From contig DATGFS010000048.1 of the NCBI GenBank assembly GCA_035308905.1, positions 121,422 to 185,421 of the forward strand: a DNA stretch of 64,000 bases, written 5' to 3'. The stretch is from a bacterium. Lineage in GTDB: Bacteria; Sysuimicrobiota; Sysuimicrobiia; Sysuimicrobiales; Segetimicrobiaceae. Both the position numbers and the translations under genes were made by a program. The notes under the pieces are model-generated. The model had not been told where the DNA came from and ran no database searches. It saw nothing but the letters and a program-made list of their open reading frames with translations. Below, piece after piece: positions 5,477 through 47,997 of this stretch (positions are counted from its first letter, which is position 1; each line of letters starts with the position of its first letter).

Positions 5477-5507
5477 TCACGCTGCCGCCGGCAGCGCCGG
5501 CTCCGGC

Positions 5508-5863: not shown

Positions 5864-5874
5864 CTTGTCCCCCG

Positions 5875-6261
5875 ATGCCGCGAAACGTGACCGGGCTCGA
5901 CCCCAAGGCCAAGGCCCAGATTCTCGCGCGGCTGCGCAGCATCGAAGGGCACTGGCGCGCGGTCGTCCGGATGGTCGACGAGGACCGGTATTGCGTAGAC
6001 GTCATCAAGCAGATCAGCGCCGTGCAGAGCGCCGTCGACAAAGCGACGGCCCTGCTGCTCGAGCGGCACCTCAACCACTGCGTGACCGGCGCGATCCGGT
6101 CGGACAATCCCCGTCAGCGCGAGCGCGCCATCGCCGAGCTGCTCGAGGTCTTCGAAAACCGCCGGCAGTACGCGTCGATTACATCGTTGCCGGCGCGCGT
6201 TGGCTCGCGCCCGCAGGCCCGGAGCCGGCCGGCACGGTCGAACGGCGGCGGCGCCTCGTAG
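5875..6261 (+). CDS. csoR: CsoR/RcnR-family copper-sensing transcriptional repressor
   Basis: DUF156 core ([42 protein letters not shown]...ERHLNHC) with conserved Cys/His ligands. Start moved to the ATG at 5875 so that the operator is non-coding. Its stop lies 13 nt before the copA ATG. Confidence 0.75.
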
Positions 6262-6274
6262 ACCGGAGAATGCG

Positions 6275-8563
6275 ATGACGGCGGAAACGCGCGCGGCCAC
6301 GGCCACGGTCGATCTCCCCATCGAGGGGATGACGTGCGCGTCGTGCGTTCGCCGAATCGAGAAGTCCCTGCGCCGCGTCGACGGGGTGAGCGAGGCGATG
6401 GTGAACCTCGCCGCGGCCAAGGCGCGCGTCGTCTTCGATCCGGCCGTGGCCACCGTGGAGCGCCTCGGCGCCGCGGTGGAGCAGGCCGGGTATGCGGTGG
6501 GACCCGCGCCGGAGGCCAGCGCGGCGTCGGGAACGCCGGCGGCGCCCCGATCCGGGGAGGACGATCCGGCCCAGCGCGAGCTGCGCGACTTGCGCGTCAA
6601 GTGGCTCACGAGCCTGATGGTGGGCGCGGCGATGATGGCGCTCATGTATCTCCCCCTTCACCTCGACATGACGCTTTGGGCGCCGGTGCTCCTGATCGCG
6701 GCCTCGGTCGTGCAGTTCTGGGCGGGCGCGGTGTTCTATCGCGCGGCATGGGCCGCCGCGCGCCACGGCGCGGCCACCATGGATACGCTGATCGCGCTCG
6801 GTACGGGCGCGGCATACGGCTACAGCGCGTTCGTGACGCTCTGGCCGTCGCTGGCGCGGCGCTGGGGATTCCCGCCCCATCTCTATTACGACTCCGCGGT
6901 CATCATCATCGCCCTGATTCTCCTCGGGCGCTGGCTGGAGCGCCGTGCGATGAAGCAGATGGGGGCGGCGATCACCGCGCTGATGAGCCTGCGTCCCAGG
7001 ACCGCGCGCGTCGTTCGCGAAGGCGCCGATCGGGATGTGCCGGTGGAGACGGTGCTCGCCGGTGATCTGATCCGCGTCCGGCCGGGGGAGACGCTGCCGG
7101 TCGACGGGGTCGTGCTGGAAGGGGCCTCGGCCGTCGACGAGAGCATGCTGACCGGAGAAAGCCTGCCGGTCGACAAGGCGCCCGGCGACACCGTGATCGG
7201 CGCGACGCTCAACACGAGGGGCTCGTTCGTCTTCCGCGCGACCAAGGTCGGGAAGGAGACGACGCTCGCGCAGATCGTCCGCCTGGTCGAAGAGGCGCAG
7301 GCGTCGAGCGCGCCGATTCAGCGGCTCGCCGACGCCGTCGCCGGCGTCTTCGTGCCGGTGGTGCTGGCCGTCGCGCTGCTGACGTTTGCCGGCTGGCTGC
7401 TGCTGGGGCCGGAGCCGCGGCTCACCTTTGCCCTCACCGCGGCGATCGCCGTCCTCATCATCGCGTGCCCCTGCGCGCTTGGGCTCGCCACCCCGACGGC
7501 GATCATGGCCGGCACCGGCACGGCGGCGGAGCACGGGGTCTTGATCCGCGGCGGCGGGGCGCTGGAGCAGGCGCGGCGGGTGACCAGCATCGTGCTCGAC
7601 AAGACCGGCACGCTGACGGCGGGCCGGCCCGAAGTCGTCCGCGTCCTGCCCGCCGGCGGTATCGAAGAGTCGGACGTGCTGCGGCTCGCGGCGGGCGCGG
7701 AGCGCGGGTCCGAGCACCCGCTCGGCGGCGCGATCGTCGCCGCCGCTCAGGCGCGGCGTCTCCACATCCCGCAGGCGGAGCGGTTCGAGTCGATCACGGG
7801 GAAGGGGATCACCGCGATCGTGGAAGGCCGCCGGCTGGCCATCGGCACCCGCGCCTTTATGGACGAGATCGGCGCCGCGCTCGACGGCCTGGGGGACCGT
7901 GCCGCCGAGATCGCCCGGACGGGCGCCACCCCGATGTTTTTGGCCGTGGATGGCCGCGGCGCGGGTCTGATCGCCGTGGCGGACCGGATCAAGCCCGGGG
8001 CTCGGGAGGCGGTCGAGTCGCTGCGGGCGCTCGGGCTCGAGGTGTGGATGGTGACGGGGGACCACCGGCTCGCGGCCGAGGCCGCCGCCGTCGAGGCGGG
8101 GATCGATCCCGCACACGTGATGGCGGAAGTCGCGCCGCGCCAGAAAGCGGAGAAGGTCAAGGCGCTGCAGGCCGCCGGGCAGGTGGTGGCGATGGTCGGC
8201 GACGGGATCAACGACGCGCCGGGGCTCGCGCAGTCCGACCTGGGCATCGCCATCGGGACGGGGACCGACGTCGCGATGGCGGCGTCCGACGTCACGCTCG
8301 TCGGCGGCGAGCTGCGCAACATCGCCGCGGCGATTGCGCTGTCACGGGCCACGGTCCGCGTCATCAAGCAGGGGCTCTTCTGGGCGTTCGCCTACAACGT
8401 GGTGCTCATCCCCGTCGCGATGGGCGCCCTCTACCCGTTCTTGCACGTCCTGCTGAACCCCGTCTTCGCGGCGGGGGCGATGGCGATGAGCAGCGTCAGC
8501 GTCGTGACGAACGCGCTGCGGCTGCGCGGATTCCGCTGGCCGATCAGCGGCCAGCAACCGTGA
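6275..8563 (+). CDS. copA: Copper-translocating P1B-type ATPase
   Basis: N-terminal HMA domain [13 protein letters not shown]; CPC motif ([12 protein letters not shown]); DKTGTLT; GDGINDAP. Confidence 0.9.
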
Positions 8564-24107: not shown

Positions 24108-24998
24108 CTAGACGCGCTCGATGACCGGCCGTCCGAACAAGCCGTACGGCCGCACCATCAGAAACACGAGGGCCACGAGATAGGGGAAGATCTCCTGCAC
24201 GCCGCCCCCGACCAGGGGACCGATGAAGCCCTCGGCGAGGTTCTCCGTGGCGCCGACGATCAGCCCGCCGACGATCGCGCCCGGAATACTGTCGATCCCG
24301 CCGATGATCAGCACCGGCAGCGCCTTGAAGGCGATCAAGGACACCGCAAACCCCACGCCGATGCGGTTGCCCCACAGGATGCCCGCCGCGATCGCGACGA
24401 GTCCCGACAGCGTCCAGGCGACCACCCATACGCGGCGCAGGTCGATCCCGACCGACATGGCCGCTTCGTGATCGTCCGCGACCGCGCGCAGGCCGAGGCC
24501 GAGCTTTGTCCGCTGAAAGAACCAGATGAGGGCGGCGACGATCACCGCGACCGCGCCGGCGGCGAACAGGTCGACGCGGTTGATGAGGATGCCGGCGGCC
24601 TGGATCGGCTCCGCCGAGATGCCGAGCGAGAGCCGATGCGGCTCCGTGCCCCAGAGCGCCTGCGCCAGGCCGCCGAGCGCGAAGGTCACGCCGAGCGTGG
24701 ACATGGCGAGCGCGAGCGGCGGGCGTCCCGCGAGCGGCCGCAGCGCCAGCCGCTCGACCGCGACAGCCAGCGCGGTCATGAGCGCCACGACGAAGAGGAG
24801 GGCCAGCGGCCACCCGAGCCGGGGCAGCACGCTCACGAGCGCAAGCGCCGCGAAGAACGTCATCGCGCCCTGGGCGAAGTTGAACACGTCGGACGCCTTG
24901 TAGATGAGCACGAAGCCGAGCGCGACCATCGCGTACAGCACGCCGACGAGCAGCCCGCTCACGAGCAGTTCGAGGCCGAAACTGAGGTCCGCGGACAC
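24108..24998 (-). CDS. livH: Branched-chain-amino-acid-type ABC permease (LivH-like)
   Basis: LivH-like N-terminus (LVSGLLVGVLYAMVALGFVLIYKASDVFNFAQG). Confidence 0.8.
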   Translation of the reverse strand: MSADLSFGLELLVSGLLVGVLYAMVALGFVLIYKASDVFNFAQGAMTFFAALALVSVLPRLGWPLALLFVVALMTALAVAVERLALRPLAGRPPLALAMSTLGVTFALGGLAQALWGTEPHRLSLGISAEPIQAAGILINRVDLFAAGAVAVIVAALIWFFQRTKLGLGLRAVADDHEAAMSVGIDLRRVWVVAWTLSGLVAIAAGILWGNRIGVGFAVSLIAFKALPVLIIGGIDSIPGAIVGGLIVGATENLAEGFIGPLVGGGVQEIFPYLVALVFLMVRPYGLFGRPVIERV

Positions 24999-25000
24999 GG

Positions 25001-26935
25001 TCAGGCGCGGGTCGGCGCCGCCGAGACCGGCTCAGGGTCCAGGGTGTGGATCCGCAGCGAGCGGGAGACCTGCGCTTCCCGCCCGTCCTCGTAGCGGACG
25101 GTCGCGCGCACCGCGATCTCCGACGCGGCGGGATCGTAGAGCGCCTCGATGATCGGCGCGTACTTCTCGCCGATAAAGCGCCGGCGCACCTTGCGGGTGC
25201 GCGTGATCTCCGCGTCGTCCGGGTCCAGCTCTTTGTGGAGGATCACGAAGCGGCGGATGCGGAGCGGCGGGGCGAGCAGCGCGTTCACGCGCCGGACCTC
25301 GTCCGCGACCAGGCCGGCGACGCGGGGGTTTTGGGCGAGGTCGGTGTAGCCCGAGTAGGCGACCTGCCGCCGCTGCGCCCAGTTGCCCACGACCTCGGGG
25401 TCGATGTTGATCATCGCGGCGACGTACGGGCGCTCGTGCCCGACGGCCACCGCTTCTTTAATGTAGGGACTGAACTTCAGCTTGTTCTCGACGTACTGCG
25501 GCGCGAACACCGTGCCGTCCTCGAGGTGCGACACGTCCCTGGCCCGATCGAGGATGACGAGGTGCCCGTCCGGGTCCAGGAGGCCTGCGTCCCCGGTCCG
25601 CAGCCACCCGTCCCGCAGCGCTTCCGCCGTCGCCGCCGGGTCGCGGAAGTACCCGGAGAAGAGTCCCGGAGAGGCGATCAGAACTTCGCCGCCGTCGTCG
25701 ACGCGGAGCCGGACGCCGGGAATCGGCGGGCCCACCGTGTCGGGCTTGACTTGGGTCCCGGGCTGAACAGTCGCCGGGGTGCTGCACTCCGTCATCCCGT
25801 AGAGCTGGGTCAGATTCACCCCGATACCGCGGAAGAACTCGAGCACCTCGGGTGCGATCGGCGCGCCCCCGGTGATGGCCACGCGGATGCGGCGGAGGCC
25901 GAGCTGGTCCCGCAGCGCCGCGAAGACGAGCGGTTCGCCGACGGCACAGCGCACCCGGTCGGCCGCCGTTGGGCTGCCGCCCTGCAGCGTCGCGCGGGCC
26001 GTTCGCATCGCCGCGGCGACGAGCCGGCGGGTGACCCCGCGCTTCAGCCAGTCGGCGTCCTCGATCCTGACCTGGCACTGCGCGAGCAGGCTCTCCCAGA
26101 TGCGCGGCGGCGCAAACGTCACCGTCGGGCCGATCTCCCGGAAGTCCGCCCGCACCGTCTCCACGCTCTCCGGACAGTTGATCGTCGCACCGCTCAGCAG
26201 TGCGACCACCACCGAGAAGAACGTGTCGCCGACCCAGGCCATCGGCAGGTACGCGAGCATTTGGTCCGTCGGCCCGACCGGCACCACCTGGAGGAAGCTC
26301 CGGCCGGTCTCGATGAGCGCGCGGTGCGAGAGCATGACGCCTTTTGCGGCGCCGGTCGTTCCGGACGTATAGCTGATCAGCGCGACGTCTTCGGGGCCGA
26401 GACCGTCGATGAGCGCGCGAAACGCGGCGGGGCCGCCGCCATCCGCTTCACGGCCGAGCGCGAACACCGTGTCGAGGCCGCGGAGGCCGGGCTCGGCGTA
26501 GTGGCGAAGGCCCTTCGGATTCTCGTACAGGAGATGCTCGACCGACGGCAGCTCCCCCCGCACTTCCAGGATCTTGTCGATCTGCTCCTGGTCCTCCGCG
26601 ACGACGATCCGCGCGCCGGCGTGGGCGATCGCGTACCGGAGCTCGTTCGCGGTCGCGTCCTGATAGACCGGAACCGGGATGCCGCCGAGCGTCTGCGCCG
26701 CGAGCATCGCCCAGTAGAGCTCCGGCCGGTTGTCGCCCACGATGGCGAGGCGATCGCCGCGCCCGAAGCCAAGCCGCGCGAACCCCAGGGCGAGGGCGTG
26801 CACGCGGTCGAGGCTCTCGGCCCACGTGTAGGACTGCCAGATGCCGTACTCTTTCTCGCGCACGGCGATCCGGCCGCCGCGCTCCTGCGCGTGGGCGAGG
26901 AGCAGCGCGGGCAGCGTCGTCATCGCCGCCGTCAT
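25001..26935 (-). CDS. AMP-dependent synthetase/ligase (long-chain acyl- or aryl-CoA ligase, FadD-like)
   Basis: AMP-binding motif ISYTSGTTGAAKGVMLSHRAL. Start ATG at 26935 forms an ATGA overlap with the livG stop. Confidence 0.8.
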   Translation of the reverse strand: MTAAMTTLPALLLAHAQERGGRIAVREKEYGIWQSYTWAESLDRVHALALGFARLGFGRGDRLAIVGDNRPELYWAMLAAQTLGGIPVPVYQDATANELRYAIAHAGARIVVAEDQEQIDKILEVRGELPSVEHLLYENPKGLRHYAEPGLRGLDTVFALGREADGGGPAAFRALIDGLGPEDVALISYTSGTTGAAKGVMLSHRALIETGRSFLQVVPVGPTDQMLAYLPMAWVGDTFFSVVVALLSGATINCPESVETVRADFREIGPTVTFAPPRIWESLLAQCQVRIEDADWLKRGVTRRLVAAAMRTARATLQGGSPTAADRVRCAVGEPLVFAALRDQLGLRRIRVAITGGAPIAPEVLEFFRGIGVNLTQLYGMTECSTPATVQPGTQVKPDTVGPPIPGVRLRVDDGGEVLIASPGLFSGYFRDPAATAEALRDGWLRTGDAGLLDPDGHLVILDRARDVSHLEDGTVFAPQYVENKLKFSPYIKEAVAVGHERPYVAAMINIDPEVVGNWAQRRQVAYSGYTDLAQNPRVAGLVADEVRRVNALLAPPLRIRRFVILHKELDPDDAEITRTRKVRRRFIGEKYAPIIEALYDPAASEIAVRATVRYEDGREAQVSRSLRIHTLDPEPVSAAPTRA

Positions 26936-27741
26936 CGCACGGCTCCGGCCGCGGGCGCCACCGGCGCCCCGCCGAGATAGGCCCGCAGCACCTCGGGATT
27001 GGCGCGGACGTCGTCCGGGGCGCCTTCGGCGATCTTCCTGCCGTGGTCCAGCACGACGACGCGATGCGAGATGTCCATCACGATCCCCATGTCGTGTTCG
27101 ATCAGCACGATCGCCGGCGCCCACTCGTCGCTGATGTCGAGGATGAACCGGACCATGTCCTCTTTCTCCTCGCGGTTCATCCCGGTCATGGGCTCGTCGA
27201 GCAGCAGGACGGTCGGCTCCGCGGCGAGCGCGCGTCCGAGGTCGACGCGCTTGCGCAGCCCGTAGGGGAGCGTTCCCGCCGGGGCCTTGCGGATGTGGGA
27301 GATCTCGAGAAAGTCGATGATGCGCTCGGCCGCTTCGCGGTGCCGCAGCTCTTCCCGTTCGCCCCAGCCCCAGTAGATGCCGGCGGCCAGGACCCCCCCG
27401 CGCATGTGGATGTGCCGCCCGACGAGGATGTTTTCGAGGACCGTCATGCCGCCGAACAGGGAGACGTTTTGGAAGGTGCGGGCGACGCCGCGGCGGGCGA
27501 CCTCGTCGGGGGACCGGCCCGTGATCTCCCGGCCGTCGAGGACGATCCGCCCCGCCGCCGGCCGGTAGACCCCGCTGATCGTGTTGAGCAGCGTGGTTTT
27601 CCCCGCGCCGTTGGGACCGATCAGGGCGAGGATCTCGCCTCCCCGAACCTCGACGCCGACCCCCGAAAGGGCCGTCACACCGCCGAATCGGACGAGCACG
27701 TCCTCTGCTCGAAGCCTCGGACCGCGGTCCCCGTTGAGCAT
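26932..27741 (-). CDS. livG: Branched-chain-amino-acid-type ABC transporter ATP-binding protein (LivG-like)
   Basis: GPNGAGKTT, LLDEPMTGMN and LIEHDM motifs. Start ATG at 27741 with RBS GGAG. Confidence 0.8.
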   Translation of the reverse strand: MLNGDRGPRLRAEDVLVRFGGVTALSGVGVEVRGGEILALIGPNGAGKTTLLNTISGVYRPAAGRIVLDGREITGRSPDEVARRGVARTFQNVSLFGGMTVLENILVGRHIHMRGGVLAAGIYWGWGEREELRHREAAERIIDFLEISHIRKAPAGTLPYGLRKRVDLGRALAAEPTVLLLDEPMTGMNREEKEDMVRFILDISDEWAPAIVLIEHDMGIVMDISHRVVVLDHGRKIAEGAPDDVRANPEVLRAYLGGAPVAPAAGAVR

Positions 27742-27935
27742 CACGGCTCCGGGTGGAAAGTTGTCACGCCGCGTTCGCCGCATCGCGCCGGGACTCCTGC
27801 GCTTTGGGACCCCGGGGTTAGAGCTCCGCCGGGACAGGGTATTGTTCATTGTAAGCACCCCGGGGCTGGTCCCCGGGGTTGTGTGTGCGTCGCTACACCG
27901 GTACTGAGTTTCCAATAAGGACGGTGAGAGTACCG

Positions 27936-29168
27936 ATGAATAGAACACGCGCGGTGTGGATCGCCCTCGCCCTGGTGGCGGCGATCTCGGTCGCGGCGCC
28001 GATGCCTTCGGGCGCCCAGGGCGTAATCAGGGTGTTTGTCGACGGTCAGCCCGTCAACTTCGACGTGCCTCCGACTGTGATTCAGGGCCGCGTCCTCGTT
28101 CCGCTGCGCGGCATCTTCGAGCGGCTGGGCGCGACGGTGGACTACAACGCCGCGAACCAGCACATCCTGGCGGTCCGCGGCGGACAGACCGTCGAGCTGA
28201 CGGTGGGGTCGCGCCAGGCCGCCGTCAACACCCAGCCGCAGCTGCTGGACGTACCCGCGTTTACGATCAACGGCCGGACGATGGTGCCGCTCCGCTTCAT
28301 CAGCGAAGCCCTCGGCGCCGGCGTGCAGTGGAACGCGGCCAACGCCACGATCTTGATCAACAGCGGCGGCGGCGCGCCGACCGCCGCGGCACCCCCTGTC
28401 ACGCCGTCGGGTGAGGTCACCGGGCGGCTGATGGCGGTGACGACCGGACAGAACCCCCAGGTTGTCGTGCGTGCGAACAACCAAGACTACACGTATACCG
28501 TAAGTCCGCAGACGGCGATCTACCGATTCAACGCCGCCACGAACGCCGGCGGCTCGGCGCCGCTCGGCGCCCTCCACGCCGGCGATCAGGTTGTAGTCGA
28601 TGCGAGCGGCAACCAGGCAACCAAGATCACAGCCACCTATCGCGTGGTGCCGGCCGGCCGTATTGCCTCCATCAACGCCGGCAACCGGACGGTCACGCTC
28701 GCGAACGGTCAGCGCTACGTTGTGCTGCCCGACGCCGTGATCACGCTGAACGGCCAGGCCGCGGACTTCAGCGCGCTGCAGAACGGCCGGGCGGCGCGTT
28801 TCTCCGTGGTGCAGGGAACGAATCAGGCGTACGAGGTCGCCGTGACGACCCCGGCGGCAGCGACGCCGGTGCCGACCGCGCTGACCGCGCCGACGATCAC
28901 GTCGCCCGGCAACGGGCAGCGGGTCGGGACGAGCGTGACTGTTCAGGGACAGGCCCAGCCCGGCGCGCTGGTCGTCGTGACGGCCCAGCCGCGGCTCCTG
29001 GGGCAGGTGGTACGCGTGTCGACAACCGCGAACGCCAACGGGGCGTGGCAGGTGGCGTTGAACCTGACCTCGATTCCGCTGGTGGGCACGCCCTACGTCG
29101 TCAGCGCGGCGCAGATCGTGAACGGCGCGCAGTCCGACGCGGCGAGCATCGAAGTGAACGTGCAGTAG
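27936..29168 (+). CDS. Secreted protein with a copper-amine-oxidase N-terminal (stalk) domain plus C-terminal Ig-like/beta-rich repeats
   Basis: Signal peptide, then a Cu_amine_oxidN1-like domain (VLVPLRGIFERLGATVDYNAANQ...TMVPLRFISEALGAGVQWNAAN), then repetitive Thr/Val/Gln-rich beta segments. RBS AAGGACGGTGAGAG. Confidence 0.6.
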   Translation: MNRTRAVWIALALVAAISVAAPMPSGAQGVIRVFVDGQPVNFDVPPTVIQGRVLVPLRGIFERLGATVDYNAANQHILAVRGGQTVELTVGSRQAAVNTQPQLLDVPAFTINGRTMVPLRFISEALGAGVQWNAANATILINSGGGAPTAAAPPVTPSGEVTGRLMAVTTGQNPQVVVRANNQDYTYTVSPQTAIYRFNAATNAGGSAPLGALHAGDQVVVDASGNQATKITATYRVVPAGRIASINAGNRTVTLANGQRYVVLPDAVITLNGQAADFSALQNGRAARFSVVQGTNQAYEVAVTTPAAATPVPTALTAPTITSPGNGQRVGTSVTVQGQAQPGALVVVTAQPRLLGQVVRVSTTANANGAWQVALNLTSIPLVGTPYVVSAAQIVNGAQSDAASIEVNVQ

Positions 29169-29226
29169 CGCTCTTGAGACTCGGTCGGGCCGCCCGCGGG
29201 CGGTCCGATCGACCGGTATGAAGAGA

Positions 29227-29259
29227 GCGGGGCGGGTCCTCAGAGAGGACCCGCCCCGC
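29227..29259. terminator. Perfect 15-bp GC stem-loop between convergent genes
   Basis: GCGGGGCGGGTCCTC-AGA-GAGGACCCGCCCCGC. There is no clean U-tract, so intrinsic termination is uncertain. Confidence 0.4.
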
Positions 29260-29280
29260 GGCGCTTATGCTGCGGCGATG

Positions 29281-29550
29281 CTAGACGGCCTTCTGCAGAC
29301 TTTCCTGCGCGACTTCTTTGCTGAGATCGCGGATCGCCAGCGTCACCGCGCGGCGCGCGCCTTCATGATCCTGGAGCGCTTCCGCCGGAATCTCGGCCGT
29401 TTTGGCGTGCGCGCCCCGCGAGAACTCGACGCCGATGACGCCCTCGCGCGCTTCGCTTACCTTGCCAACGCCGATGTCGTCGCGGCCCGAGCCGGCCACC
29501 GCCTCTTCGAGGGTACGACGATACTGTTCCAGATCCTTATCGCGCAACAT
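29281..29550 (-). CDS. Hypothetical small charged protein (89 aa)
   Basis: Protein-like composition, strong RBS GGAGGTGGGAGA upstream. The overlapping plus-strand ORF (29218..29679) is Arg/Ala-rich antisense-like. No confident family assignment. Confidence 0.4.
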   Translation of the reverse strand: MLRDKDLEQYRRTLEEAVAGSGRDDIGVGKVSEAREGVIGVEFSRGAHAKTAEIPAEALQDHEGARRAVTLAIRDLSKEVAQESLQKAV

Positions 29551-29644
29551 TCTCCCACCTCCGTCTCCGGTGAGAAGTATTTACCCGCCCTTGCCGCTTT
29601 TGCAGAGGGTAGGCTATACTCTGATTCGGCCCGCAAGCGTTTGT

Positions 29645-29720
29645 GCCGGGGTAGCTCAGGTGGTAGAGCAGGGGACTGAAAATCCCCGTGTCGGCGGTTC
29701 GACTCCGTCCCCCGGCACCA
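29645..29720 (+). tRNA. tRNA-Phe (anticodon GAA), CCA encoded
   Basis: GCCGGGGTAGCTCAGGTGGTAGAGCAGGGGACTGAAAATCCCCGTGTCGGCGGTTCGACTCCGTCCCCCGGCACCA. Canonical cloverleaf; anticodon loop ACTGAAAAT. Confidence 0.85.
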
Positions 29721-30169
29721 TCAGAAATACAAGTAGGACAAGGGCTGGTGCTCGATTTCCTGCCGCCACTGGCGGCGGGACGCATGGACGCCCTTCGTGC
29801 GTCCCAAATGCTGTAGATATGCTGTACCGTGAAATCTGCACCGCTGGTGCGAACAGATGGCGTGGCACCCGTCACGCCGGACGGTGCTAATACAACGCAC
29901 CCCCACACGGGACGAGTGAGCACCGGCCGTCTCACGGCAGCGAGAACGCCCACTCGTGTCGCTGTAGCCGGGCCTCCAATTCCGCGACGCGCGCCCCCCG
30001 CTCGGCCAGTCGGTCCGAGCAGCCACGCCACGTAGTGTTCGGCGTCATGTTCGAGCAGACCGTTACCCGCGCGCCCTCTCCGCCTCGGACTCGACCAGCG
30101 GGGTGTTGATCAGCATCGACGAAATACCACGTTGCTCTCGCAAGTCTGTTGCAGAAAGGGGACGCGACG

Positions 30170-31186
30170 ATGGACACGGGCGACCAGAGGCCGTCCGCTG
30201 CGCTTCTGGATTTGGTCAACGGGTTCAGGGTGTCGCAGGCGATCAACGTCGTCGCGACCCTCGGGATCGCCGATCTCTTGAAGAACGGTCCGCGGAGCAG
30301 CGATGACCTCGCGGCGGCGACGGGGACCCACGCGGACACGCTGTACAGGCTGCTACGGGCGCTCGCCAGCGTGGGGGTGTTCCGGGAGGAGGCGGACCGC
30401 CGCTTCATGCTGACGTCGCTTGGCGAGTGCCTGCGATCCGACGCAGTCGAACCCGTGGGGCCCTATGCGGTTCACATTGGCGAGCCGCGACTGTGGCAAG
30501 CGTGGGGGCACCTTCTCGAAAGCGTGCGGACCGGTGAAAACACCTTCCGCCTCGTTCACGGTGTGGACGCGTGGGAGTACCGGCGGCGCAATCCAGAGGC
30601 GGGAGCAATTTTCGACCGCGCGATGACGGGGCAGTCGCGCCTCCAGGCGAATGCCGTGCTCAAGGTCTACGACTTCGAGCGGTTCCGGTGCGTGGTTGAC
30701 GTCGGCGGCGGGCATGGTCTGCTCTTGTCCGCGATCCTCGCCAAACATCGGGCGCTCCGCGGCGTGCTGTTCGATCAGCCCCATGTCGTGTCCGGTGCTG
30801 AGCCTGCGCTGCAAGCCGCGGGCATTGCGGATCGTTGCCAGGTCGTTGGAGGAGACTTCTTCGAGGCTGTTCCCGGCGGCGGTGACGCCTACGTGTTGAA
30901 GTTCATCCTCCACGACTGGGAGGACGCGCACGCGACGGTCATTCTGCAGTGCTGTCGGCGTTCCATCGCGCCTACCGGGAGGCTCTTAGTCATCGACGCC
31001 GAGATCGCCCCCCCGAACGAGGGCTCCAGGAGCAAGTTCCTCGACCTCAGCATGTTGGTGCAATACGGAGCACGAGAGCGCACGCGCGAGGAGTGGGCGG
31101 CTCTCTTTGCCGCGTCCGGTTTCCAACTCATTGCCGCGACCCCGACCGAAGCCGGGTTGAGCGTCATCGAGGGCATCCCGGCTTAG
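30170..31186 (+). CDS. Class I SAM-dependent O-methyltransferase (plant/actinobacterial OMT family with N-terminal dimerisation domain)
   Basis: Dimerisation region plus SAM motifs VVDVGGGHG and the GGDFF..VP motif. Start ATG at 30170 with RBS AAAGGGGA. Confidence 0.75.
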   Translation: MDTGDQRPSAALLDLVNGFRVSQAINVVATLGIADLLKNGPRSSDDLAAATGTHADTLYRLLRALASVGVFREEADRRFMLTSLGECLRSDAVEPVGPYAVHIGEPRLWQAWGHLLESVRTGENTFRLVHGVDAWEYRRRNPEAGAIFDRAMTGQSRLQANAVLKVYDFERFRCVVDVGGGHGLLLSAILAKHRALRGVLFDQPHVVSGAEPALQAAGIADRCQVVGGDFFEAVPGGGDAYVLKFILHDWEDAHATVILQCCRRSIAPTGRLLVIDAEIAPPNEGSRSKFLDLSMLVQYGARERTREEWAALFAASGFQLIAATPTEAGLSVIEGIPA

Positions 31187-31276
31187 CGCCGGAACACCGC
31201 CCCCGCCGCAGTGGGTGCGGCCGACCGTGGTCGTCCAGGTCGAGTACAGCCACCGTTCTGGAGGGATGGGGAAGAT

Positions 31277-31831
31277 TCACTGTTTCAAGTAACGAAGCGC
31301 AACGCATCCTGACTTAAATGTCTCGGACTCAACAAGTTTTAGTTGTAATCTTTCTTGTAGGCTGCTACCGTCCAACAACCGTCTCCCCTCTCCTACAATT
31401 ATCGGCTGAACGACAAAATGATATTCATCAACCAGACCGAGCTCTATCAGTTGTGAAGGAATACTTACACCACCGGTCAAAATATTTTTGCCTTGTTCTT
31501 TTTTCAATTTGAGTATTTCGTCTTGAAGCTCCGTACGAACAATTCTCGTATTGTTTCCTTCGGCGCTGTCCAATGAGCGGGAAAAAACAATTTTGTTGAT
31601 GGAGTCAAATGTGTCGGCAAATTCGTTCGTTGCTTTTGTCATAGAGTGGGTCTTTGCGACATCAGGCCAAAACGGAACCATCAATTGATACGTCTTACGC
31701 CCAAAGACGAGTAGGTCAACATCTCGCATGAGGTGCGTAAAATATTCATGTATTTCTTCATTACCAATTGTTTTGGTGTGGTCGCAGCAGCCATCTAACG
31801 TAATGTTGATTGCGAAGATTACATTTCTCAT
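31277..31831 (-). CDS. Dihydrofolate-reductase-family protein (RibD C-terminal domain / YwjB-like reductase), atypically low GC
   Basis: MRNVIFAINITLDGCCDH...LLVFGRKTY...ILTGGVSI...GLVDEYHFVVQPIIVGEGRRLL matches PF01872 DHFR-like reductases. The gene is about 40-45% GC (42% by hand count on 31301-31360) against a ~70% background. Confidence 0.7.
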   Translation of the reverse strand: MRNVIFAINITLDGCCDHTKTIGNEEIHEYFTHLMRDVDLLVFGRKTYQLMVPFWPDVAKTHSMTKATNEFADTFDSINKIVFSRSLDSAEGNNTRIVRTELQDEILKLKKEQGKNILTGGVSIPSQLIELGLVDEYHFVVQPIIVGEGRRLLDGSSLQERLQLKLVESETFKSGCVALRYLKQ

Positions 31832-31863
31832 TTTCGCCTCGGATTGAGCAGCATTGGGAGCGA

Positions 31864-32931
31864 TCAATCCATGACTACGCGGTTACCGCCGGCACGCTTC
31901 GCTTGGTACATCGCGCGATCGGCCGCCTCCAACAGGGCATCGGCCAGAGCGTCGGCGGCGACTCCGCTGTTGGAACACGTGGCGACGCCGAAACTCGCCG
32001 TGACGCGCGTCAGCTGATTCTCGATATCGGTCATGGCTTGCCGTACCCGCTCCGCGACCAGCGCCGCGTTCCGCTTTCCGGCTTCTGGAAGCAAGAGCAC
32101 AAACTCGTCTCCGCCGAAGCGGGCAGCCAGGTCCATCTCCCGACATGAGCCCCGCAAGACCGCAGCGACCGCCCGCAGCACCTCATCGCCGTGAAGATGG
32201 CCGAACTGGTCGTTGATTTTCTTGAACGCGTCGATTTCCACAAACACGACCGACACCGGGTGTCCCGACCGGCGAGACCGTGCGAGTTCCCGCTCCAGCG
32301 CCCGGCGTAGCGTCCTGCGGTTCGCGAGTCCCGTTAGGCCGTCGGTGGCCGCCTGTTCCCGAAGCTGTTCGTGGAGCCGGGCCGCTTCCAGGGCCGCCGC
32401 CACATAGCCCGCCACGGCGACGAGCACGTCCAGGTCCGCCTCATCGAATGCCGCCGTTTGGCGGCGCACGGCGCTTAGGATGCCCGTCACGCGGCCGCGG
32501 GTCACGAGGGGTGCATAGATGGCGGAACGGGCCCCCGTGTCCCGCCAGCACACCCGTCGATCGGCGGCCAGGTCAGACACGAGCAGGGGTTGGCGGGCGC
32601 CGGCCACCGAGCCGTGGACGCCCTTTCCCCGAGGAATCGCGCGCCCCCGGCTACGTGCGCACAGCCCCGAGGCGGCCCTAATGACGAACGCATTCGGATC
32701 GTTCTCGTCCACGAGGGCAACGGAGCACGCATCAAACCCGACGTCGTCGCGCAGCGCTCGGAGCGCGTACTGGAGCAGGGCCTGGAGGCCGAGGATCGCG
32801 GTGGACTTGCTGGCAAAAGCAGCCAGGAAGGCGACCCTTTTGTCCAGGCCGCCAGAGGCCGATGCGCCGGGCAGCCCGCTGCGCCTGTGCGTGCCGTGCT
32901 TCGTGCGGCGGAGAATGGCGTGGGGCATCAC
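31864..32931 (-). CDS. GAF-domain diguanylate cyclase (GGDEF)
   Basis: N-terminal GAF-like domain, then GGDEF with an intact RFGGDEF site and a putative I-site RxxD. The stop overlaps the downstream low-GC gene's ORF (ATGA at 31864-31867). Confidence 0.8.
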   Translation of the reverse strand: MMPHAILRRTKHGTHRRSGLPGASASGGLDKRVAFLAAFASKSTAILGLQALLQYALRALRDDVGFDACSVALVDENDPNAFVIRAASGLCARSRGRAIPRGKGVHGSVAGARQPLLVSDLAADRRVCWRDTGARSAIYAPLVTRGRVTGILSAVRRQTAAFDEADLDVLVAVAGYVAAALEAARLHEQLREQAATDGLTGLANRRTLRRALERELARSRRSGHPVSVVFVEIDAFKKINDQFGHLHGDEVLRAVAAVLRGSCREMDLAARFGGDEFVLLLPEAGKRNAALVAERVRQAMTDIENQLTRVTASFGVATCSNSGVAADALADALLEAADRAMYQAKRAGGNRVVMD

Positions 32932-33521
32932 AACGCAGGTCCTGCCTGACCATCTGAGCAGTGCGATGAAGCCATGCCGCCCCCTTTGGTGCGGATCGCC
33001 GGTCCTGCGTGTCCTGTACCTTCGCAGGTCCTCGCATCTTCAGACCGCAAATAACAAAGCCGAACGACGTGAACGTTCGGCTTCGGCAACCCGGCTGACC
33101 CGGCAAAACAGTCCCGGTACTACCGGCTTTGGCAGCCCGGCTGATTGCACGGCGGCCCCGTGGCTTTGCGCCCCCGCGTTACCGCGAGTTTGCCTTTATC
33201 CACCGCAGCCTCTCAGCGGTGTCTATCCGCTGTCTCTTTTACAACTCTGGCACAGTGCTCGCGCGCGCTTGCTGCTGCTGTATCTTTGCCACATCGAAGC
33301 AAAATCTTAACTTCATTCTAACTTCATCGACGGTTTACTTGTAGATTCGGAGTAAAGTGGGGAGCGGAAAGGAGGTTGCGCAAAAAAAACCATTCGGGGC
33401 TCCGCCGGCCGCACGGTGAGGAGAGCGCCGCCCGCTTCGCCCCGCCCTCCGCGTCCCCGCGAAACGCCTTATGATCCTTTCGCTATGATGATCGTACCTT
33501 CACTCTTCGAGGGTACTTCAT

Positions 33522-41342: not shown

Positions 41343-41933
41343 ATGACCGGCGGTGTGCCGATCAGCCCGCTCGGCGCCGTGCTGGCGGCGACGTTTGCGA
41401 CCAGCATGACCGTGCTGCTCGCCTGGATGCTGCGCGTGCCCCGGCCCGTATCGGCCGAGATTGCGCGGGCGGTGCGGTCTGTCGGCGCCGTGAGAACGAT
41501 CTTCGTGCCGATTTTGGAAGCGTACTATTCGGAGCGGGCGGTCGAACTCGCGAGCCGGCTCGGCGAGGGCCAGAAGGCCACGATCCTCCTGGGGTTCGTC
41601 GTCGAGGTGCCCCGCACGCTGAGCCTGGGCGTCGCGCTGCCCAAAGTTGAGGAGCGGGGACGTCGCGCGCTCGAGCAGGCCAGCCAGATCGTCGCGAACC
41701 ATCACCTGCAGTCGACGACGGAGATGATCCGCGCCCGGGAGGCGGGGGAGGGCATCACGCGAACGGCGCGGGATCATGACGTCGACCTCATCGTGCTCGG
41801 CATCTCGCCGGAGATCGGGTTCGTCGAAGGGTCGACGGAGCGCGTTGCGGAAGCGCTGTTTCGGCACGCACCCTGCGAGGTCATTATCGACCGGCTTGCC
41901 GAGACCAGCATCGGAGCCGCGCCGAGGTCATAG
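41343..41933 (+). CDS. Universal stress protein (UspA domain) with N-terminal membrane helix
   Basis: UspA-like segments (ATILLGFVVEV...DHDVDLIVLG...APCEVII). Confidence 0.6.
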   Translation: MTGGVPISPLGAVLAATFATSMTVLLAWMLRVPRPVSAEIARAVRSVGAVRTIFVPILEAYYSERAVELASRLGEGQKATILLGFVVEVPRTLSLGVALPKVEERGRRALEQASQIVANHHLQSTTEMIRAREAGEGITRTARDHDVDLIVLGISPEIGFVEGSTERVAEALFRHAPCEVIIDRLAETSIGAAPRS

Positions 41934-41974
41934 ACCGGTTTTCCCGCCGGACGCAGAGAGGGGAGTCAGAGGCG

Positions 41975-42451
41975 ATGCACGTGGTGATCCTGGGGTGTGG
42001 ACGGGTGGGTGCGATGCTCGCCTCGTTGCTGGAGCTCGAGGGACATACGGTGGGCATCATCGACCGCGATCCGGAGTCGTTTCGCCGGCTCAGCGAGGGG
42101 TTCGGGGGCAAGACGATCCTCGGCGTCGGGATCGATGAGGATATCCTTCGCAAGGCCGGCATCGAGCGGGCGGGGGGATTCGCGGCCACGACCAACGGGG
42201 ACAACACGAACATCATGTCGGCGCAGATCGCGAAGATGAAGTTCAAGGTCCCGCGCGTCATCGCCCGGATCTACGATCCGCTGCGCGCGGAGGCGTACCG
42301 CGAACTGGGCATCGACACGATCTCACCCACACTGTTGGGCGCGGGACTCTGCATGGACTTCCTGGCCGCGCGGCCCTGGCGCAGCATCGAAGAGTACCAC
42401 GCCGTGCGCGAAACGCGCCTGCTTTCTGCGGAACCTGAAGGGAGCGGGTAA
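41975..42451 (+). CDS. TrkA-N (RCK N-terminal, NAD-binding) domain protein
   Basis: VVILGCGRVG Rossmann motif. Confidence 0.7.
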   Translation: MHVVILGCGRVGAMLASLLELEGHTVGIIDRDPESFRRLSEGFGGKTILGVGIDEDILRKAGIERAGGFAATTNGDNTNIMSAQIAKMKFKVPRVIARIYDPLRAEAYRELGIDTISPTLLGAGLCMDFLAARPWRSIEEYHAVRETRLLSAEPEGSG

Positions 42452-42453
42452 CC

Positions 42454-43128
42454 ATGTACGTGATCGTGGCGGGGGGCGGGAAGGTCGGCTACTATCTCAC
42501 GAAGGCGCTGCGCGACATCGGACAGGAAGTGACCGTCATCGAGAAGCTGCGCCGGCGCTTCGTCATTCTCAAGGAGGAGTTCGGCGACGGCGCGCTGATC
42601 GGGGATGCCTGCGAGGTCCGTACACTGGATCAGGCGGGCGCGGTGCGCGCGGACCTCGTCGCGGCCGTGACCGGCGATGACGAGGACAACCTGGTCATCT
42701 GCCAGATGGCCAAGCGCAAGTTCAACGTCAAGCGCGTAATCGCGAGGATCAACAATCCGAAGAACGAGGTGACGTTCCGGCTCCTCGGGATCGACGAAAC
42801 GGTGAGTTCGACCAAACTGATCTACAGTCTCATCGAGCAAGAGGTCGAAGTCGGCGACGTCATCCCGCTGACGGCGCTGCGGCGGGGGAACTTGGAGCTG
42901 GTCGAAGTGGCGGTTCCGCAGAACTCACCCGCCGCCAACAGGAAAGTTCGGGACCTCCCCCTTCCCCGTGGATGCACCCTCGGGATTCTTGTGAGAGGCG
43001 AGACGGCCGAGGTGATCAATCCGGACACGCTCCTGCGCCCGGGAGACGATCTGGTGGCGATTATCCCGTCGGCCGGGGTTCAGGCGTTCCGCCAGGCGCT
43101 GCTGGGACGAGGTGTGCCCGCGACCTAA
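42454..43128 (+). CDS. TrkA/KtrA-like K+ transport regulatory protein (RCK_N + RCK_C)
   Basis: IVAGGGKVG Rossmann motif plus a C-terminal TrkA-C domain. Confidence 0.75.
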   Translation: MYVIVAGGGKVGYYLTKALRDIGQEVTVIEKLRRRFVILKEEFGDGALIGDACEVRTLDQAGAVRADLVAAVTGDDEDNLVICQMAKRKFNVKRVIARINNPKNEVTFRLLGIDETVSSTKLIYSLIEQEVEVGDVIPLTALRRGNLELVEVAVPQNSPAANRKVRDLPLPRGCTLGILVRGETAEVINPDTLLRPGDDLVAIIPSAGVQAFRQALLGRGVPAT

Positions 43129-43293
43129 GCACAGCCGGCGCCGCGCGGTCGGTCCGGCGCCGAGGCTCCGCAACGCTGTATTCGCTCGGCCGCGCAAATT
43201 TACGATTTCTTAACCTGTTAGGGTGGCTTCATGACCCCGCCGTAACGCGGTTCGTGGTACGGTGCCCCCTATGAGCGGTACGGGAGGTCGTGT

Positions 43294-43386
43294 ATGACGG
43301 ATGTCTTGATGATTGGCCTGATGGTTGTCCTGCTGCTTTCGACTCTCGTCTGGGTCCCGGGATTGACGCGGCTCATAGGACGGTGA
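43294..43386 (+). CDS. Small hydrophobic peptide (30 aa) upstream of kdpF
   Basis: MTDVLMIGLMVVLLLSTLVWVPGLTRLIGR; strong RBS GGGAGG 6 nt upstream. Not in the ORF track because it is under 60 aa. Function unknown. Confidence 0.3.
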   Translation: MTDVLMIGLMVVLLLSTLVWVPGLTRLIGR

Positions 43387-43390
43387 GGGC

Positions 43391-43474
43391 ATGGTCGTGC
43401 TCGCCGGCATCTTGTCGGCAGGACTTTTCATCTATCTCGTCTGTGCGCTCCTGAAGCCGGAGTGGTTCGTATGA
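43391..43474 (+). CDS. kdpF: K+-transporting ATPase small subunit KdpF
   Basis: [27 protein letters not shown] carries the KdpF C-terminal YLxxALLxPExF signature. Its stop overlaps the kdpA ATG (ATGA). Confidence 0.55.
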   Translation: MVVLAGILSAGLFIYLVCALLKPEWFV

Positions 43475-45288
43475 CGGCGATGGGGGTGCTGCGCATTCTC
43501 CTCGCGCTCGCGGTGGTTTTCGCGCTGGTCCGGCCGCTGGGTCTCTACATGGCCCGCGTCTATATGGGCGAGCGCACGCTGTTGGACCGCGTGCTGCGGC
43601 CGCTGGAACGGCTCTTCTACCGGTGGTCGCGCGTGGACCCGGACGAGGACATGTCGTGGCAGACGTATTCGATCGCGATCCTTCTCTTCACGTTCGCCGG
43701 CATGCTGCTGTTGTACGCGCTCCAGCGGACGCAGGCCGTCCTCCCGTTCAACCCGCAGAAGCTGCCGGCCGTTTCTCCGGATCTTTCGCTCAACACCGCG
43801 GTCTCGTTCGCGACCAACACCAACTGGCAGAACTACAGCGGCGAGACGACGCTGAGCTACTTCGTCCAGATGGCGGGGCTCACGGTCAAGAACTTCGTCT
43901 CCGCCGCGGCCGGGCTTGCGGTGATGGTCGCGCTCTTCCGCGGGCTCACGCGGCGGTCGGCGAAGGCGATCGGCAACTTCTGGGTCGACCTCGTGCGGAG
44001 CAGCCTGTACATCCTGCTCCCGATGTCGGTCGTGCTGGCGCTGCTGCTGGCGTCCCAGGGCGTCGTCGCGACCCTGTCGCCGTACCGGACCGCGGCGCTC
44101 CTTCAGCCGGTGACATACGAGGAGCCGGTCACAGACGCGAACGGGAAACCGGTGCTCGACGCGCAAGGTCACCAGAAGACCAAGCCGGTGACGGTCACCG
44201 ATCAGGTGATCGCGGTGGGGCCCGCCGCGTCTCAGATCGCGATCAAGCAGCTCGGCACGAACGGCGGCGGCTTCTTCAACGTCAACTCGGCGCATCCGTT
44301 CGAGAACCCGACCCCGTTTTCGAACTTCCTGGAGCTGATCGCGATCCTCGTGCTGCCGGCCGCGGTCTGTTACACGTTCGGCAAGATGGTCGGCGACACG
44401 CGGCAGGGGTGGGCGATTCTCGCCGCGATGACGCTGATGTTCCTGCCGCTGCTCGCGATGACCGAGGGGTTCGAACAGGCCGGCAATCCGCTGATCGCCC
44501 ATTTCGGCGTCGATCAGCGGGCGGGTCCCGCGCAGTCCGGCGGCAACATGGAAGGGAAGGAGACGCGGTTCGGCGTCCCCGATTCCGCGCTGTGGGCGAC
44601 GGCGACCACCGCCACGTCAAACGGCTCGGTCAACTCGATGCACGACTCGTACACGCCGCTCGGCGGGATGGTGCCCCTGATCGCCATGCATTTGGGCGAG
44701 GTCGTCTACGGCGGCATCGGCGTCGGGCTGTACGACATGCTGATGGTGGTGATCCTCGCCGCGTTCATCGCCGGCCTGATGGTCGGCCGCACGCCGGAAT
44801 ACCTCGGCAAGAAGATCGAGGCCTTCGAGATGAAGATGGCGTCGGTCGTGGTGCTGGTAATGCCGCTGATCGTCCTGATCGGCACGGCGCTCGCGGTCGC
44901 GACCCCGGCCGGCCGCGCCGGCGCCTCCAACCCCGGCCCGCACGGCTACAGCGAAATCCTCTACGCTTTTACCTCGATGGGCAACAACAACGGCAGCGCG
45001 TTCGCCGGCATCAACAGCAACACGCCGTTCTACAACGACGTTGGCGCGGTCGTGCTCTGGCTCGGACGGTTTTGGGAGATCGTGCCGGTTCTGGCGGTGG
45101 CAGGCGCGATGGCGGCCAAGAAGGTCGTGCCGCCCAGCCCCGGCACCCTGCCCACGCACACCGGGCAGTTCGTGCTGTGGCTCGCCGCGGTGACCGTGGT
45201 CATCGGGGCGCTCAGCTTCCTCCCGGCGCTCGCGCTCGGCCCCATCGTCGAGCACTTCCTGCTCTACGCCGGCGCGGTCTTCAAGTGA
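43471..45288 (+). CDS. kdpA: K+-transporting ATPase subunit A
   Basis: KdpA selectivity-filter-like segments ([19 protein letters not shown]). Confidence 0.9.
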
Positions 45289-45298
45289 GGGTACACCA

Positions 45299-47389
<2,091 letters not shown>

Positions 47390-47424
47390 CGGCGTCCTAT
47401 CGTGCTCGCGAAGGAGCGTGACGT

Positions 47425-47997
47425 ATGCGGCGTCAGATCTATCCGTCGATCATGATGACCATCCTCTCGACCGTGTTGTTCGGATTGATCTACCCGCTCG
47501 CGATCACCGGGGTCGCGCAGGTGCTCTTTCCGAAGCAGGCCAACGGCAGCCTCATCGTCGACGGCGGCAGGGTCGCCGGTTCGACCTTGATCGGCCAGCC
47601 GTTTTCCGACCCGAAATACTTCTGGGGACGTCTGTCCGCGACGTCGCCCTTTCCATATAGCGCCGCGGCCTCCAGCGGCTCCAACCTGGGGCCGACGAAC
47701 CAGGCGCTGATCGACGCGGTCAAACAGCGGATCGACGACCTCCGCAAGGCCGACCCGGGCAACGCGGCGCCGATTCCGGTGGACCTTGTAACCGCCTCGG
47801 CGAGCGGATTGGATCCTCACATCAGCCCCGCGGCGGCGCGGTATCAGGCCGCCCGCGTCGCGCGGGTACGCCGGCTTCCGCCGGACACGGTCGACCGTCT
47901 GATCCGGGAGCATACCGAGGGCCGGCAGTTCGCCATCCTCGGTGAGCCGCGCGTGAATGTGCTAGAGTTGAACCGAGCGCTGGATCAAACGAGGTGA
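47425..47997 (+). CDS. kdpC: K+-transporting ATPase subunit C
   Basis: KdpC N-terminal TM helix and conserved SGLDPHISP motif. Confidence 0.85.

Follow-up and report, generated by a model that had tools for sequence, protein, structure and literature searches.

How a gene with a GC content of about 42% came to stand in a bacterial genome of 69% GC, and from which source it was gained, is the question raised by the locus described here. We analysed a stretch of 64,000 nucleotides (the window) from contig DATGFS010000048.1, positions 121,422 to 185,421, of assembly GCA_035308905.1, a metagenome-assembled genome (MAG) of a member of the Segetimicrobiaceae (Sysuimicrobiota). On the minus strand of the window, a gene encoding a putative reductase with a RibD_C domain follows a GAF-GGDEF diguanylate cyclase gene. 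The reductase gene is foreign and was gained by ordinary horizontal gene transfer, which can be traced here in unusual detail. Taken as a whole, we consider it probable that this gene of the YyaP/RibD_C type was acquired horizontally, is intact and is maintained by selection, and that it derives from an inverted-repeat-bounded unit, here named type A, in a gene pool centred on Acidobacteriota.

Base composition and codon usage

Counted from the ATG at 31831, the reductase gene has a GC content of 41.7%, against 69.2% for the window. When GC content was scanned over the 64 kb with a 556-bp sliding window (mean 0.692, standard deviation (SD) 0.039), the gene formed the deepest dip, about 7 SD under the mean, and the next lowest value was 0.568. 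The edges of this dip match the open reading frame (ORF) to within about 20 nt. Thirty-nine host genes served as the reference for GC content by codon position and for the codon adaptation index (CAI). The reductase gene showed a GC content of 0.50, 0.33 and 0.43 at the first, second and third codon positions, compared with 0.73, 0.51 and 0.845 in the host genes, and its CAI was 0.296, compared with 0.694 ± 0.075 (z = −5.3). The ten codons that are rarest in the host account for 22 of its 184 codons, against an average of 1.6% in the host genes, and the shares of FYMINK and GARP residues (0.277 and 0.174; host mean 0.163 and 0.375) indicated an amino-acid make-up of the AT type.

The initial annotation, made on the sequence of this DNA, had described a 600-bp block of low GC content (about 40–45%) acquired from elsewhere. 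The measured GC content agreed with this, and the GC scan and the CAI both showed a sharp anomaly. The block itself is real, and its measured extent of 578 bp (31277–31854) is close to that described; the ORF 31277–31867 does exist on the minus strand. As base composition, codon usage and amino-acid composition are all unlike those of the host, the view that the gene is foreign stands.

Relatives and probable proximate source of the gene

Protein relatives were taken as the best 120 clusters out of at least 8,000 candidates, and genome loci as the best 80, with one genome per species. At least 120 protein clusters were 84–93% identical to the window protein, and those with organism names belong to Acidobacteriota. 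The best 80 loci were also almost all from this phylum, namely from Terriglobia (Acidoferrales, 'Sulfotelmatobacter', Acidobacteriaceae) and Blastocatellia/Pyrinomonadaceae, with one Binatia and one Eremiobacterota outside it. The gene is GC-poor in 80 of 80 loci (0.38–0.48, median 0.434) while the flanks range from 0.51 to 0.63 (median 0.57), and the GC dip is limited to the ORF in these loci as well. Comparison by blastn with three of them (L003, L081 and L087; such numbers are our handles for loci) gave 88–90% DNA identity over positions 31277–31852/31854 of the window only, and divergence is immediate past the stop codon (31277) and upstream of 31854. The closest copy among those known shows 92.4% protein identity at a synonymous divergence (dS) of about 0.3–0.4, and copies from different classes and phyla are separated by a dS of 0.3–0.9. 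The proximate source, as judged from these matches, appears to be a gene pool that is very widespread and has its centre in Acidobacteriota, chiefly in Terriglobia such as Acidoferrales and 'Sulfotelmatobacter'. In locus L006, a tandem paralogue (4196–4759), 67% identical to the query, was observed 1.2 kb upstream of the main copy; its GC content is 0.457 vs 0.57.

A different donor had been proposed in the initial annotation, that is, direct acquisition from a low-GC, Firmicutes- or Bacteroidetes-like bacterium. Such a donor would fit the 42% GC and the AT-rich amino-acid signature. A 55%-identical homologue on a plasmid of Spirosoma (Bacteroidota) matches its replicon in GC content (0.489 vs 0.477), which fits an ultimate origin in a lineage of this kind. 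However, all relatives with at least 75% identity lie on 51–63% GC contigs of Acidobacteriota, Binatia or Eremiobacterota, and low-GC flanks were seen in none of the best 80 loci. A 23-nt non-coding leader is also common to the window and the type A unit of Acidobacteriota, and the best match of the Firmicutes type was YyaP, at only E = 7e-20. The named relatives at 75–93% identity are all Acidobacteriota apart from one Binatia and one Eremiobacterota, so that the proposed donor does not hold as the proximate source, and we regard direct acquisition from it as very unlikely. It had also been considered that the best homologues might all come from high-GC relatives of the host with similarly low-GC orthologues. 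Low-GC copies were indeed found, but their hosts are mid-GC Acidobacteriota and not relatives of the present host, and the recent acquisition that had been suggested was upheld as a moderately recent one.

No plasmid match above 55% identity was found, and neither phages nor IMG/VR viral contigs yielded a relative; a phage or plasmid vehicle was rejected on these grounds. Both PF01872 (RibD_C) and PF03795 (YCII) are among the Pfam families with a high index of horizontal gene transfer (PMC5581361).

Residence in the host genome and age of the acquisition

The contig had been held to be non-chimeric, and further assemblies confirmed this. Contig k141_473699 of ENA ERZ27279685 (L178, assembled with MEGAHIT) corresponds to window 24170–32763 at 99.99% identity and runs across both junctions of the low-GC block, and a Logan contig from SRR5579862 (L179) corresponds to window 29673–31610 at 100% identity and runs across the 3′ junction. 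Both were found via the neighbouring M19 peptidase and O-methyltransferase proteins. The ENA contig has no gene listed for the low-GC ORF (L178:7018–7694, equal to window 31187–31863), while the Logan contig and NCBI list the reductase; exact-protein look-ups of the reductase (184-aa and 196-aa forms) failed because gene calling on the ENA contig had missed the ORF, and a look-up of the GGDEF protein P0121 gave no recorded gene either.

With the 12 nearest copies as the reference for polarity, the substitutions specific to the window copy comprised 12 AT-to-GC changes, 1 GC-to-AT change and 1 other change, and the 12:1 bias differs from 1:1 with P = 0.0017. At third positions the ratio was 10:1, implying an equilibrium GC content at third codon positions (GC3*) of 0.84, which equals the host GC3 of 0.845, whereas the other lineages gave 296:135 and an implied GC3* of 0.56. 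The direction of the private substitutions is as residence in a 69% GC genome predicts, though the counts are small. That the private mutations follow the host GC bias is internal evidence that the gene truly resides in this host. Its GC3 is still 0.43, which is mid-range for the family (0.32–0.54), and the acquisition is therefore recent on the amelioration scale. We conclude that it is moderately recent and not brand new.

An assembly chimera or contamination, in which an Acidobacteriota fragment was misjoined into a high-GC contig, would explain the sharp GC boundaries, and the source is a MAG; moreover, assemblies of the same population break about 750–900 bp off the insert, at 32608–32763. 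Against this, the ENA contig crosses both junctions and the Logan contig the 3′ junction, and a chimera would need two joins that exactly bracket an ORF without a shared repeat. The host-biased private substitutions also disagree with it, as does the fact that no sampled Acidobacteriota copy exceeds 90% DNA identity. An artefact of this kind is, in our judgement, extremely unlikely. The contig ends, which come from two further assemblies, lie in the GAF-coding part of the GGDEF gene (L176 starts at 32690, L177 starts at 32608 and L178 ends at 32763), and these breaks suggest strain variation or a coverage problem.

The concept of amelioration by Lawrence and Ochman is similar to our case, as the window gene is a one-gene anomaly of GC content and codon usage with private substitutions toward the host composition. 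It differs in that the donor pool too carries this gene as a GC-poor islet (43% vs 57%). Because the copy of the donor pool was already GC-poor, the GC anomaly has been passed on in two or more host backgrounds, one after the other.

Orthologues of the GGDEF protein at 78, 69, 64 and 63% amino-acid identity are followed downstream by high-GC sequence, and the RibD_C gene is absent in 4 of 4. When metagenomes were scanned with the GGDEF protein, the matches were all to remote GGDEF proteins (32–48% identity), and no orthologous locus was among them. The locus of the closest GGDEF orthologue, L093, has 83% nucleotide identity to the window. In this locus an HD-domain gene stands between the upstream region common to both and the GGDEF gene (L093:353–1673 vs window 32863–32961), a 1.3-kb indel, and the window is without this gene.

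The initial annotation had also pointed to the tRNA-Phe gene 1.6 kb away. The position is right (1,557 bp), but a role in the acquisition is not supported, as there is no att-like repeat and no integrase. A single-gene foreign block lying 1.56 kb from tRNA-Phe, with boundaries equal to those of an ORF, could be the cassette of an integron or belong to a genomic island at the tRNA. However, no attC-like inverted repeat was found 3′ of the gene and no integrase among the neighbouring ORFs, and host sequence begins right after the stop codon. A repeat of the 3′ part of tRNA-Phe, searched for within 15 kb on either side, gave only one chance-level 14-nt match with a mismatch, and the intervening O-methyltransferase gene is host-like (GC3 0.81). 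We give an integron cassette or a tRNA-linked island next to no probability.

Insertion site and proposed expression of the imported gene

The features of the locus are listed in Table 1. The stop codon TGA of the GGDEF gene (31866–31864) overlaps a TTG (31867–31865) to form TTGA, and this TTG merely opens the mechanical ORF. The first in-frame ATG is at 31831, 32 nt past the GGDEF stop, and it is also the start in the NCBI record. It was claimed earlier that an ATGA overlap couples the GGDEF stop to the start of the reductase gene. This has to be revised, as the stop overlaps the TTG while the ATG in use lies 32 nt on with its own GAGG; at the functional start no stop/start overlap with the GGDEF gene was found. 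An ATGA is present at 31831–28, where it joins a relic mini-ORF of 9 codons (including the stop) to the reductase start. The identity of the upstream neighbour as a GAF-GGDEF gene (Pfam) and the operon-like position of the reductase gene behind it were both retained. The GAF-GGDEF gene has a GC3 of 0.79, and its protein is a 100% match to protein P0121.

Table 1. Features of the reductase locus in the window and of related loci
Feature	Position	Strand	Remarks
YyaP/RibD_C-family reductase gene, 184 aa + stop	31277..31831	-	NCBI HLY23740.1, exact protein match
Imported low-GC block, 578 bp	31277..31854	-	Homology to Acidobacteriota copies begins and ends here
Relic of upstream small ORF 'orfX', mini-ORF MLLNPRRK plus stop	31828..31854	-	Same as the last 8 orfX codons of L081, L087, L003, L004, L014
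GAGG Shine-Dalgarno, 5 nt before ATG 31831	31837..31840	-	Motif kept in all type A loci
Host spacer, 9 nt, 5′ insertion junction	31855..31863	-	Between GGDEF stop and imported block
Host GAF-GGDEF diguanylate cyclase gene, 354 aa	31864..32931	-	NCBI HLY23741.1; Pfam GGDEF 2.3e-44, GAF_2 1.6e-17
Host intergenic spacer, 70% GC, 3′ insertion junction	31187..31276	.	No similarity to donor 3′ flanks
Convergent host O-methyltransferase gene	30170..31186	+	Pfam Methyltransf_2 1.2e-49, GC3 0.81
tRNA-Phe (GAA)	29645..29720	+	ARAGORN
Type A units	L087:7760-8699; L092:5088-5992; L003:5758-6638; also L004, L026, L050		Small ORF + RibD_C gene
Type B loci	L043, L057, L061, L078, L040, L048, L072 (~3500-7000 in each)

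The insertion point lies 9 nt beyond the GGDEF stop, and 23 nt of the native leader are kept before the start codon (ATGCTGCTCAATCCGAGGCGAAA-ATG). The uninterrupted host site between the GGDEF and O-methyltransferase genes would read TGATCGCTCCCA joined directly to ATCTTCCCC. Microhomology at the junctions, read from the sequences, is at most 2 nt. The GGDEF protein and its 78% orthologue in L093 have C-termini of equal length; the insertion thus lies outside the ORF and left the GGDEF gene of the host untouched. We propose that the 578-bp segment was inserted at this point by illegitimate recombination. It would have brought in the gene together with the final 23 nt of its leader, among them the GAGG and the 3′ end of the small ORF. 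In the source pool the gene occurs in two settings, a type A unit, from which the window copy would stem, and a type B operon.

No terminator-like site was found between the GGDEF and reductase genes, which are on the same strand and 32 nt apart. Promoter-like matches occur only inside the AT-rich ORF, and there is no evident promoter of its own. The gene is most probably transcribed by read-through from the GGDEF promoter. RNA folding showed an 11-bp hairpin at the O-methyltransferase stop (31174–31200), and a terminator-like hairpin with a T-tract and a strong 12-bp stem lies upstream of the GGDEF gene (33055–33085, minus strand); these two hairpins probably delimit a GGDEF-reductase transcription unit. 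Translation is expected from ATG 31831 by means of the imported GAGG, and it would be slow or inefficient because of the rare codons. The relic mini-ORF may aid re-initiation at the ATGA.

The rest of the window seems ordinary for a soil bacterium. We observed a kdp cluster for potassium transport, of which KdpA and KdpB were confirmed, CopC/CopD, ABC transporters, an HMA-domain P-type ATPase for heavy metals, and a Cu_amine_oxidN1-domain protein beside tRNA-Phe; window coordinates listed for this remainder are 41343–47997, 6200–8563 and 61783–63111.

The inverted-repeat-bounded type A unit

The leader of the type A unit, whose last 23 nt are those found in the window, is conserved in 22 of the 80 loci. 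A full-length unit is about 0.9 kb, from −243 to +83 relative to the gene, and its ends are imperfect inverted repeats of 25–33 bp (L087, L092, L004 and L026), which in L087 read CCACTTGCCGGGTACCGCGACAAACCAGGCAC ... GTGCCTGGTTACCGCGCTTACCGGCCAAGTGG. The contexts of the units are unrelated, with neighbouring genes for example of these kinds: pyrimidine catabolism and PAPS reductase; rnpA-yidC; and DinB/DUF3303. Within the leader there is a small ORF of about 66 amino acids (MNEDSTVELHVRLLGEGTDCSRPTKAINIGDGLFQLDAPNLYVAMTRGSKLLVLCSKTMLLNPRRK; L087:7825–8040), with equivalents in L013, L065, L004, L014 and L021. Its TGA overlaps the reductase ATG (ATGA), and it is often frameshifted, as in L003 and L081. 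The small ORF had no Pfam match, and an Rfam search of four type A loci returned no riboswitch or non-coding RNA in the leader, just a tRNA elsewhere. A decayed small ORF would be a better explanation of the conserved leader than a non-coding RNA. Its 'LYVAMTRGSKLLVL' stretch resembles the C-terminal motif of UvrD/RecD-type helicases, and the small ORF may be a gene remnant. The window copy is a fragment of a type A unit; it comprises the gene, its Shine-Dalgarno sequence and the final eight small-ORF codons.

Mobile insertion cassettes are passenger genes that are bounded by inverted repeats and carry no transposase, such as those with qnrD and qnrS2 (PMC3913671, PMC2600179), and Tn3-like mobile insertion cassettes are reported in Xanthomonas (PMC4337579). 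The Acidobacteriota type A unit is likewise repeat-bounded, without a transposase and located in unrelated contexts. It differs in that it has no identified target-site duplications and no cognate insertion sequence (neither a transposase nor a cognate insertion sequence of the unit was found), and in that the window copy is an internal fragment with neither repeat. We hypothesise that the type A unit may be a mobile insertion cassette.

The type B operon and the low GC content in every host

In 31 other loci the gene is part of the type B operon, which comprises genes for an extracytoplasmic function (ECF) sigma factor (DUF6596), a YCII protein, a RibD_C paralogue, the GC-poor RibD_C protein and a second YCII protein. 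The neighbours have a host-like GC content of 0.53–0.65, and the GC-poor RibD_C gene is 12–15 GC points lower. The downstream YCII gene and the reductase gene are similar in dS (medians 0.30 and 0.33), and the GC3 of YCII is host-like. For the downstream YCII gene, dS stays at about 0.13–0.3 even where the compared loci carry the labels of different families or classes. By these values, the whole type B cluster looks recently mobile.

At the tips of all lineages, 518 AT-to-GC substitutions were counted vs 222 GC-to-AT substitutions. Because of this AT-to-GC excess at all tips, and because GC3* is 0.56 vs the present 0.43, the gene is out of compositional equilibrium. The GC3 of the gene showed no correlation with the GC content of the flanks (rho 0.10, P = 0.40). 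As the gene is GC-poor in every host, we favour an ultimate origin in a more AT-rich lineage, with recent spread, over a low GC content held by selection. This lineage was possibly Bacteroidota-like.

In the alternative, the gene would be an ancient resident whose low GC content is held by selection, for example because rare codons serve regulation or because the mRNA or DNA has to be AT-rich. The GC deficit in all 80 loci, even within an operon of host-GC genes, agrees with this, as do the absent correlation with flank GC and the downstream YCII gene, which has a similar dS yet a host-like GC3. On the other hand, the tips are biased from AT to GC everywhere and GC3* lies above the present value, and dS of 0.3–0.9 across classes and phyla is far too low for vertical descent. 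The four GGDEF orthologues without the gene, and the foreign leader fragment kept in the window, also speak against ancient residence, which we consider highly improbable. The preferred explanation remains recent spread of a gene from an AT-rich lineage.

The encoded protein and its possible function

A complete RibD_C reductase of the PF01872 type had been proposed, and this was verified by Pfam (71.5 bits, E = 1e-19, gathering cut-off 24.1, profile positions 2–196 of 197). RibD_C was the sole Pfam domain at E ≤ 0.001, and the protein is without a deaminase domain. The best match in the Protein Data Bank (PDB) was B. subtilis YyaP (2GD9), with E = 7e-20 for the single sequence and 4e-25 with the family profile, and the alignment covers the full length (residues 2–181 vs 9–185). 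Models of RibD and pyrimidine reductases (TIGR00227, TIGR01508, NF010663/4) scored 16.7–21.4 bits, below NCBIfam cut-offs of 150–226, and the RibD-type reductase 6P8C in the PDB was marginal (E = 0.07 with the family profile). Neither did Pfam return a match to FolA-type dihydrofolate reductase (DHFR; PF00186), the best chain, 1CZ3, reaching only E = 0.75 with the family profile. Since the match to 2GD9 is full-length, the RibD models stay under their cut-offs and FolA-type DHFR gives no significant match, the protein is best assigned as a stand-alone, YyaP-like RibD_C member; it is neither a RibD equivalog nor a FolA-type DHFR.

Compared with its relatives, the gene has a ratio of nonsynonymous to synonymous divergence (dN/dS) of 0.10–0.20, and no family-invariant residue is altered. 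It is an intact gene on which purifying selection acts. A D-G-C-C-D-H motif (residues 13–18, window 31780–31797) is invariant in the subfamily; the 55% homologue of Spirosoma reads YCDH, and the motif is absent from YyaP and the host-GC paralogues. DGCCDH is possibly a subfamily-specific feature for metal binding or catalysis. Like YyaP, the window protein has a single domain and about 185 amino acids, and it shares the C-terminal GG...LvDE...P...GeG motif region, while the identity is low and DGCCDH near the N-terminus is present in the window subfamily only. RibD/RibG, the archaeal or Rib7 pyrimidine reductases and M. tuberculosis Rv2671 belong to the same Pfam family and fold, and NAD(P)H-dependent reduction of a heterocycle is likely to be the chemistry of the window protein as well. 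It differs from the RibD/RibG type in having no deaminase domain and no riboflavin genes nearby. The enzyme is probably a reductase that depends on NAD(P)H and has a DHFR-like fold, the putative substrate being a pyrimidine- or pterin-like heterocycle. The native type B setting with an ECF sigma factor and YCII proteins suggests, by analogy, a role in stress or detoxification rather than in folate or riboflavin biosynthesis. A literature search found no paper showing an activity for YyaP-like proteins, and searches on RibD_C with trimethoprim and on PDB 8JSV found nothing useful.

A link of the gene to mobilised antifolate resistance had also been suggested. It could serve as an alternative dihydrofolate reductase that gives antifolate (trimethoprim-like) tolerance, and such selection could have driven its spread. 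The protein of the window falls into the DHFR-fold superfamily, databases use the name 'dihydrofolate reductase family protein', and the wide recent dissemination suggests strong selection. M. tuberculosis Rv2671, of the RibD type, is discussed as a DHFR analogue in para-aminosalicylic acid and antifolate resistance (for example PMC10530724). However, the protein has no significant similarity to FolA, and Pfam gives RibD_C only. Resistance plasmids, integrons and phages were without the gene in the searches made, and with plasmid matches of at most 55% and no phage or IMG/VR relatives the suggested link to mobilised resistance was not borne out. In its native setting the gene is grouped with those for YCII proteins and an ECF sigma factor and with no folate genes, and no activity of this sort is on record for YyaP-like proteins in the papers found. 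By analogy with Rv2671 a role in antifolate tolerance is possible but finds no support here, and we consider both such a role and its part in driving the spread unlikely.

Weighing of the evidence

Several points weigh against the proposed acquisition of a type A-derived gene from Acidobacteriota. The nearest copy is only 92.4% identical in protein, and the actual donor is therefore unsampled. The transfer across phyla was deduced from GC content and gene content, not from phylogeny. Set against the family-wide 70% share of AT-to-GC changes, the 12:1 bias of the window branch, which rests on 13 polarised changes, was not significantly stronger (P = 0.064). The further assemblies may share reads with the MAG. 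As for the unit itself, no convincing direct repeats that could be target-site duplications were found outside the inverted repeats in L087, L092 and L004, and a blastn-short search of the window gave no match to the type A inverted repeats expected of a mobile insertion cassette. Finally, an AlphaFold2 model made from a 24-sequence alignment (84–93% identity) had a mean pLDDT of 48 and was unusable.

Implications for the family and its hosts

The feature in the window is an accessory gene of atypical composition that was acquired horizontally and belongs to an uncharacterised RibD_C/YyaP subfamily, and it is of a kind already known. It represents a clean and well-bounded case of horizontal transfer with internal evidence of residence. 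As the gene caller missed the reductase ORF on the ENA contig, AT-rich imports in GC-rich contigs can be under-annotated. The wider patterns, which are not established here, are the occurrence of the GC-poor reductase at 75–93% identity in hundreds of soil species and its partial cassette-like association; a small cassette-type vehicle is indicated as possible.

More tentatively, the window copy may be an offshoot of a large recent sweep across phyla in soil, which came from a much more AT-rich lineage and proceeded partly via an undescribed repeat-bounded cassette of about 0.9 kb; we think this doubtful but worth stating. If it were true, the uniform GC deficit (43% vs 51–69%), the non-equilibrium substitutions and the dS of 0.3–0.9 would record strong recent selection in soil. 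The selective agent might then be an antifolate-, pterin- or pyrimidine-like toxin, and the gene would be a soil counterpart of a spreading resistance gene. Few genes are shared so widely in near-identical form among soil Acidobacteriota as that for the YyaP-like reductase, and it is GC-poor everywhere, which makes it a good candidate for functional study.

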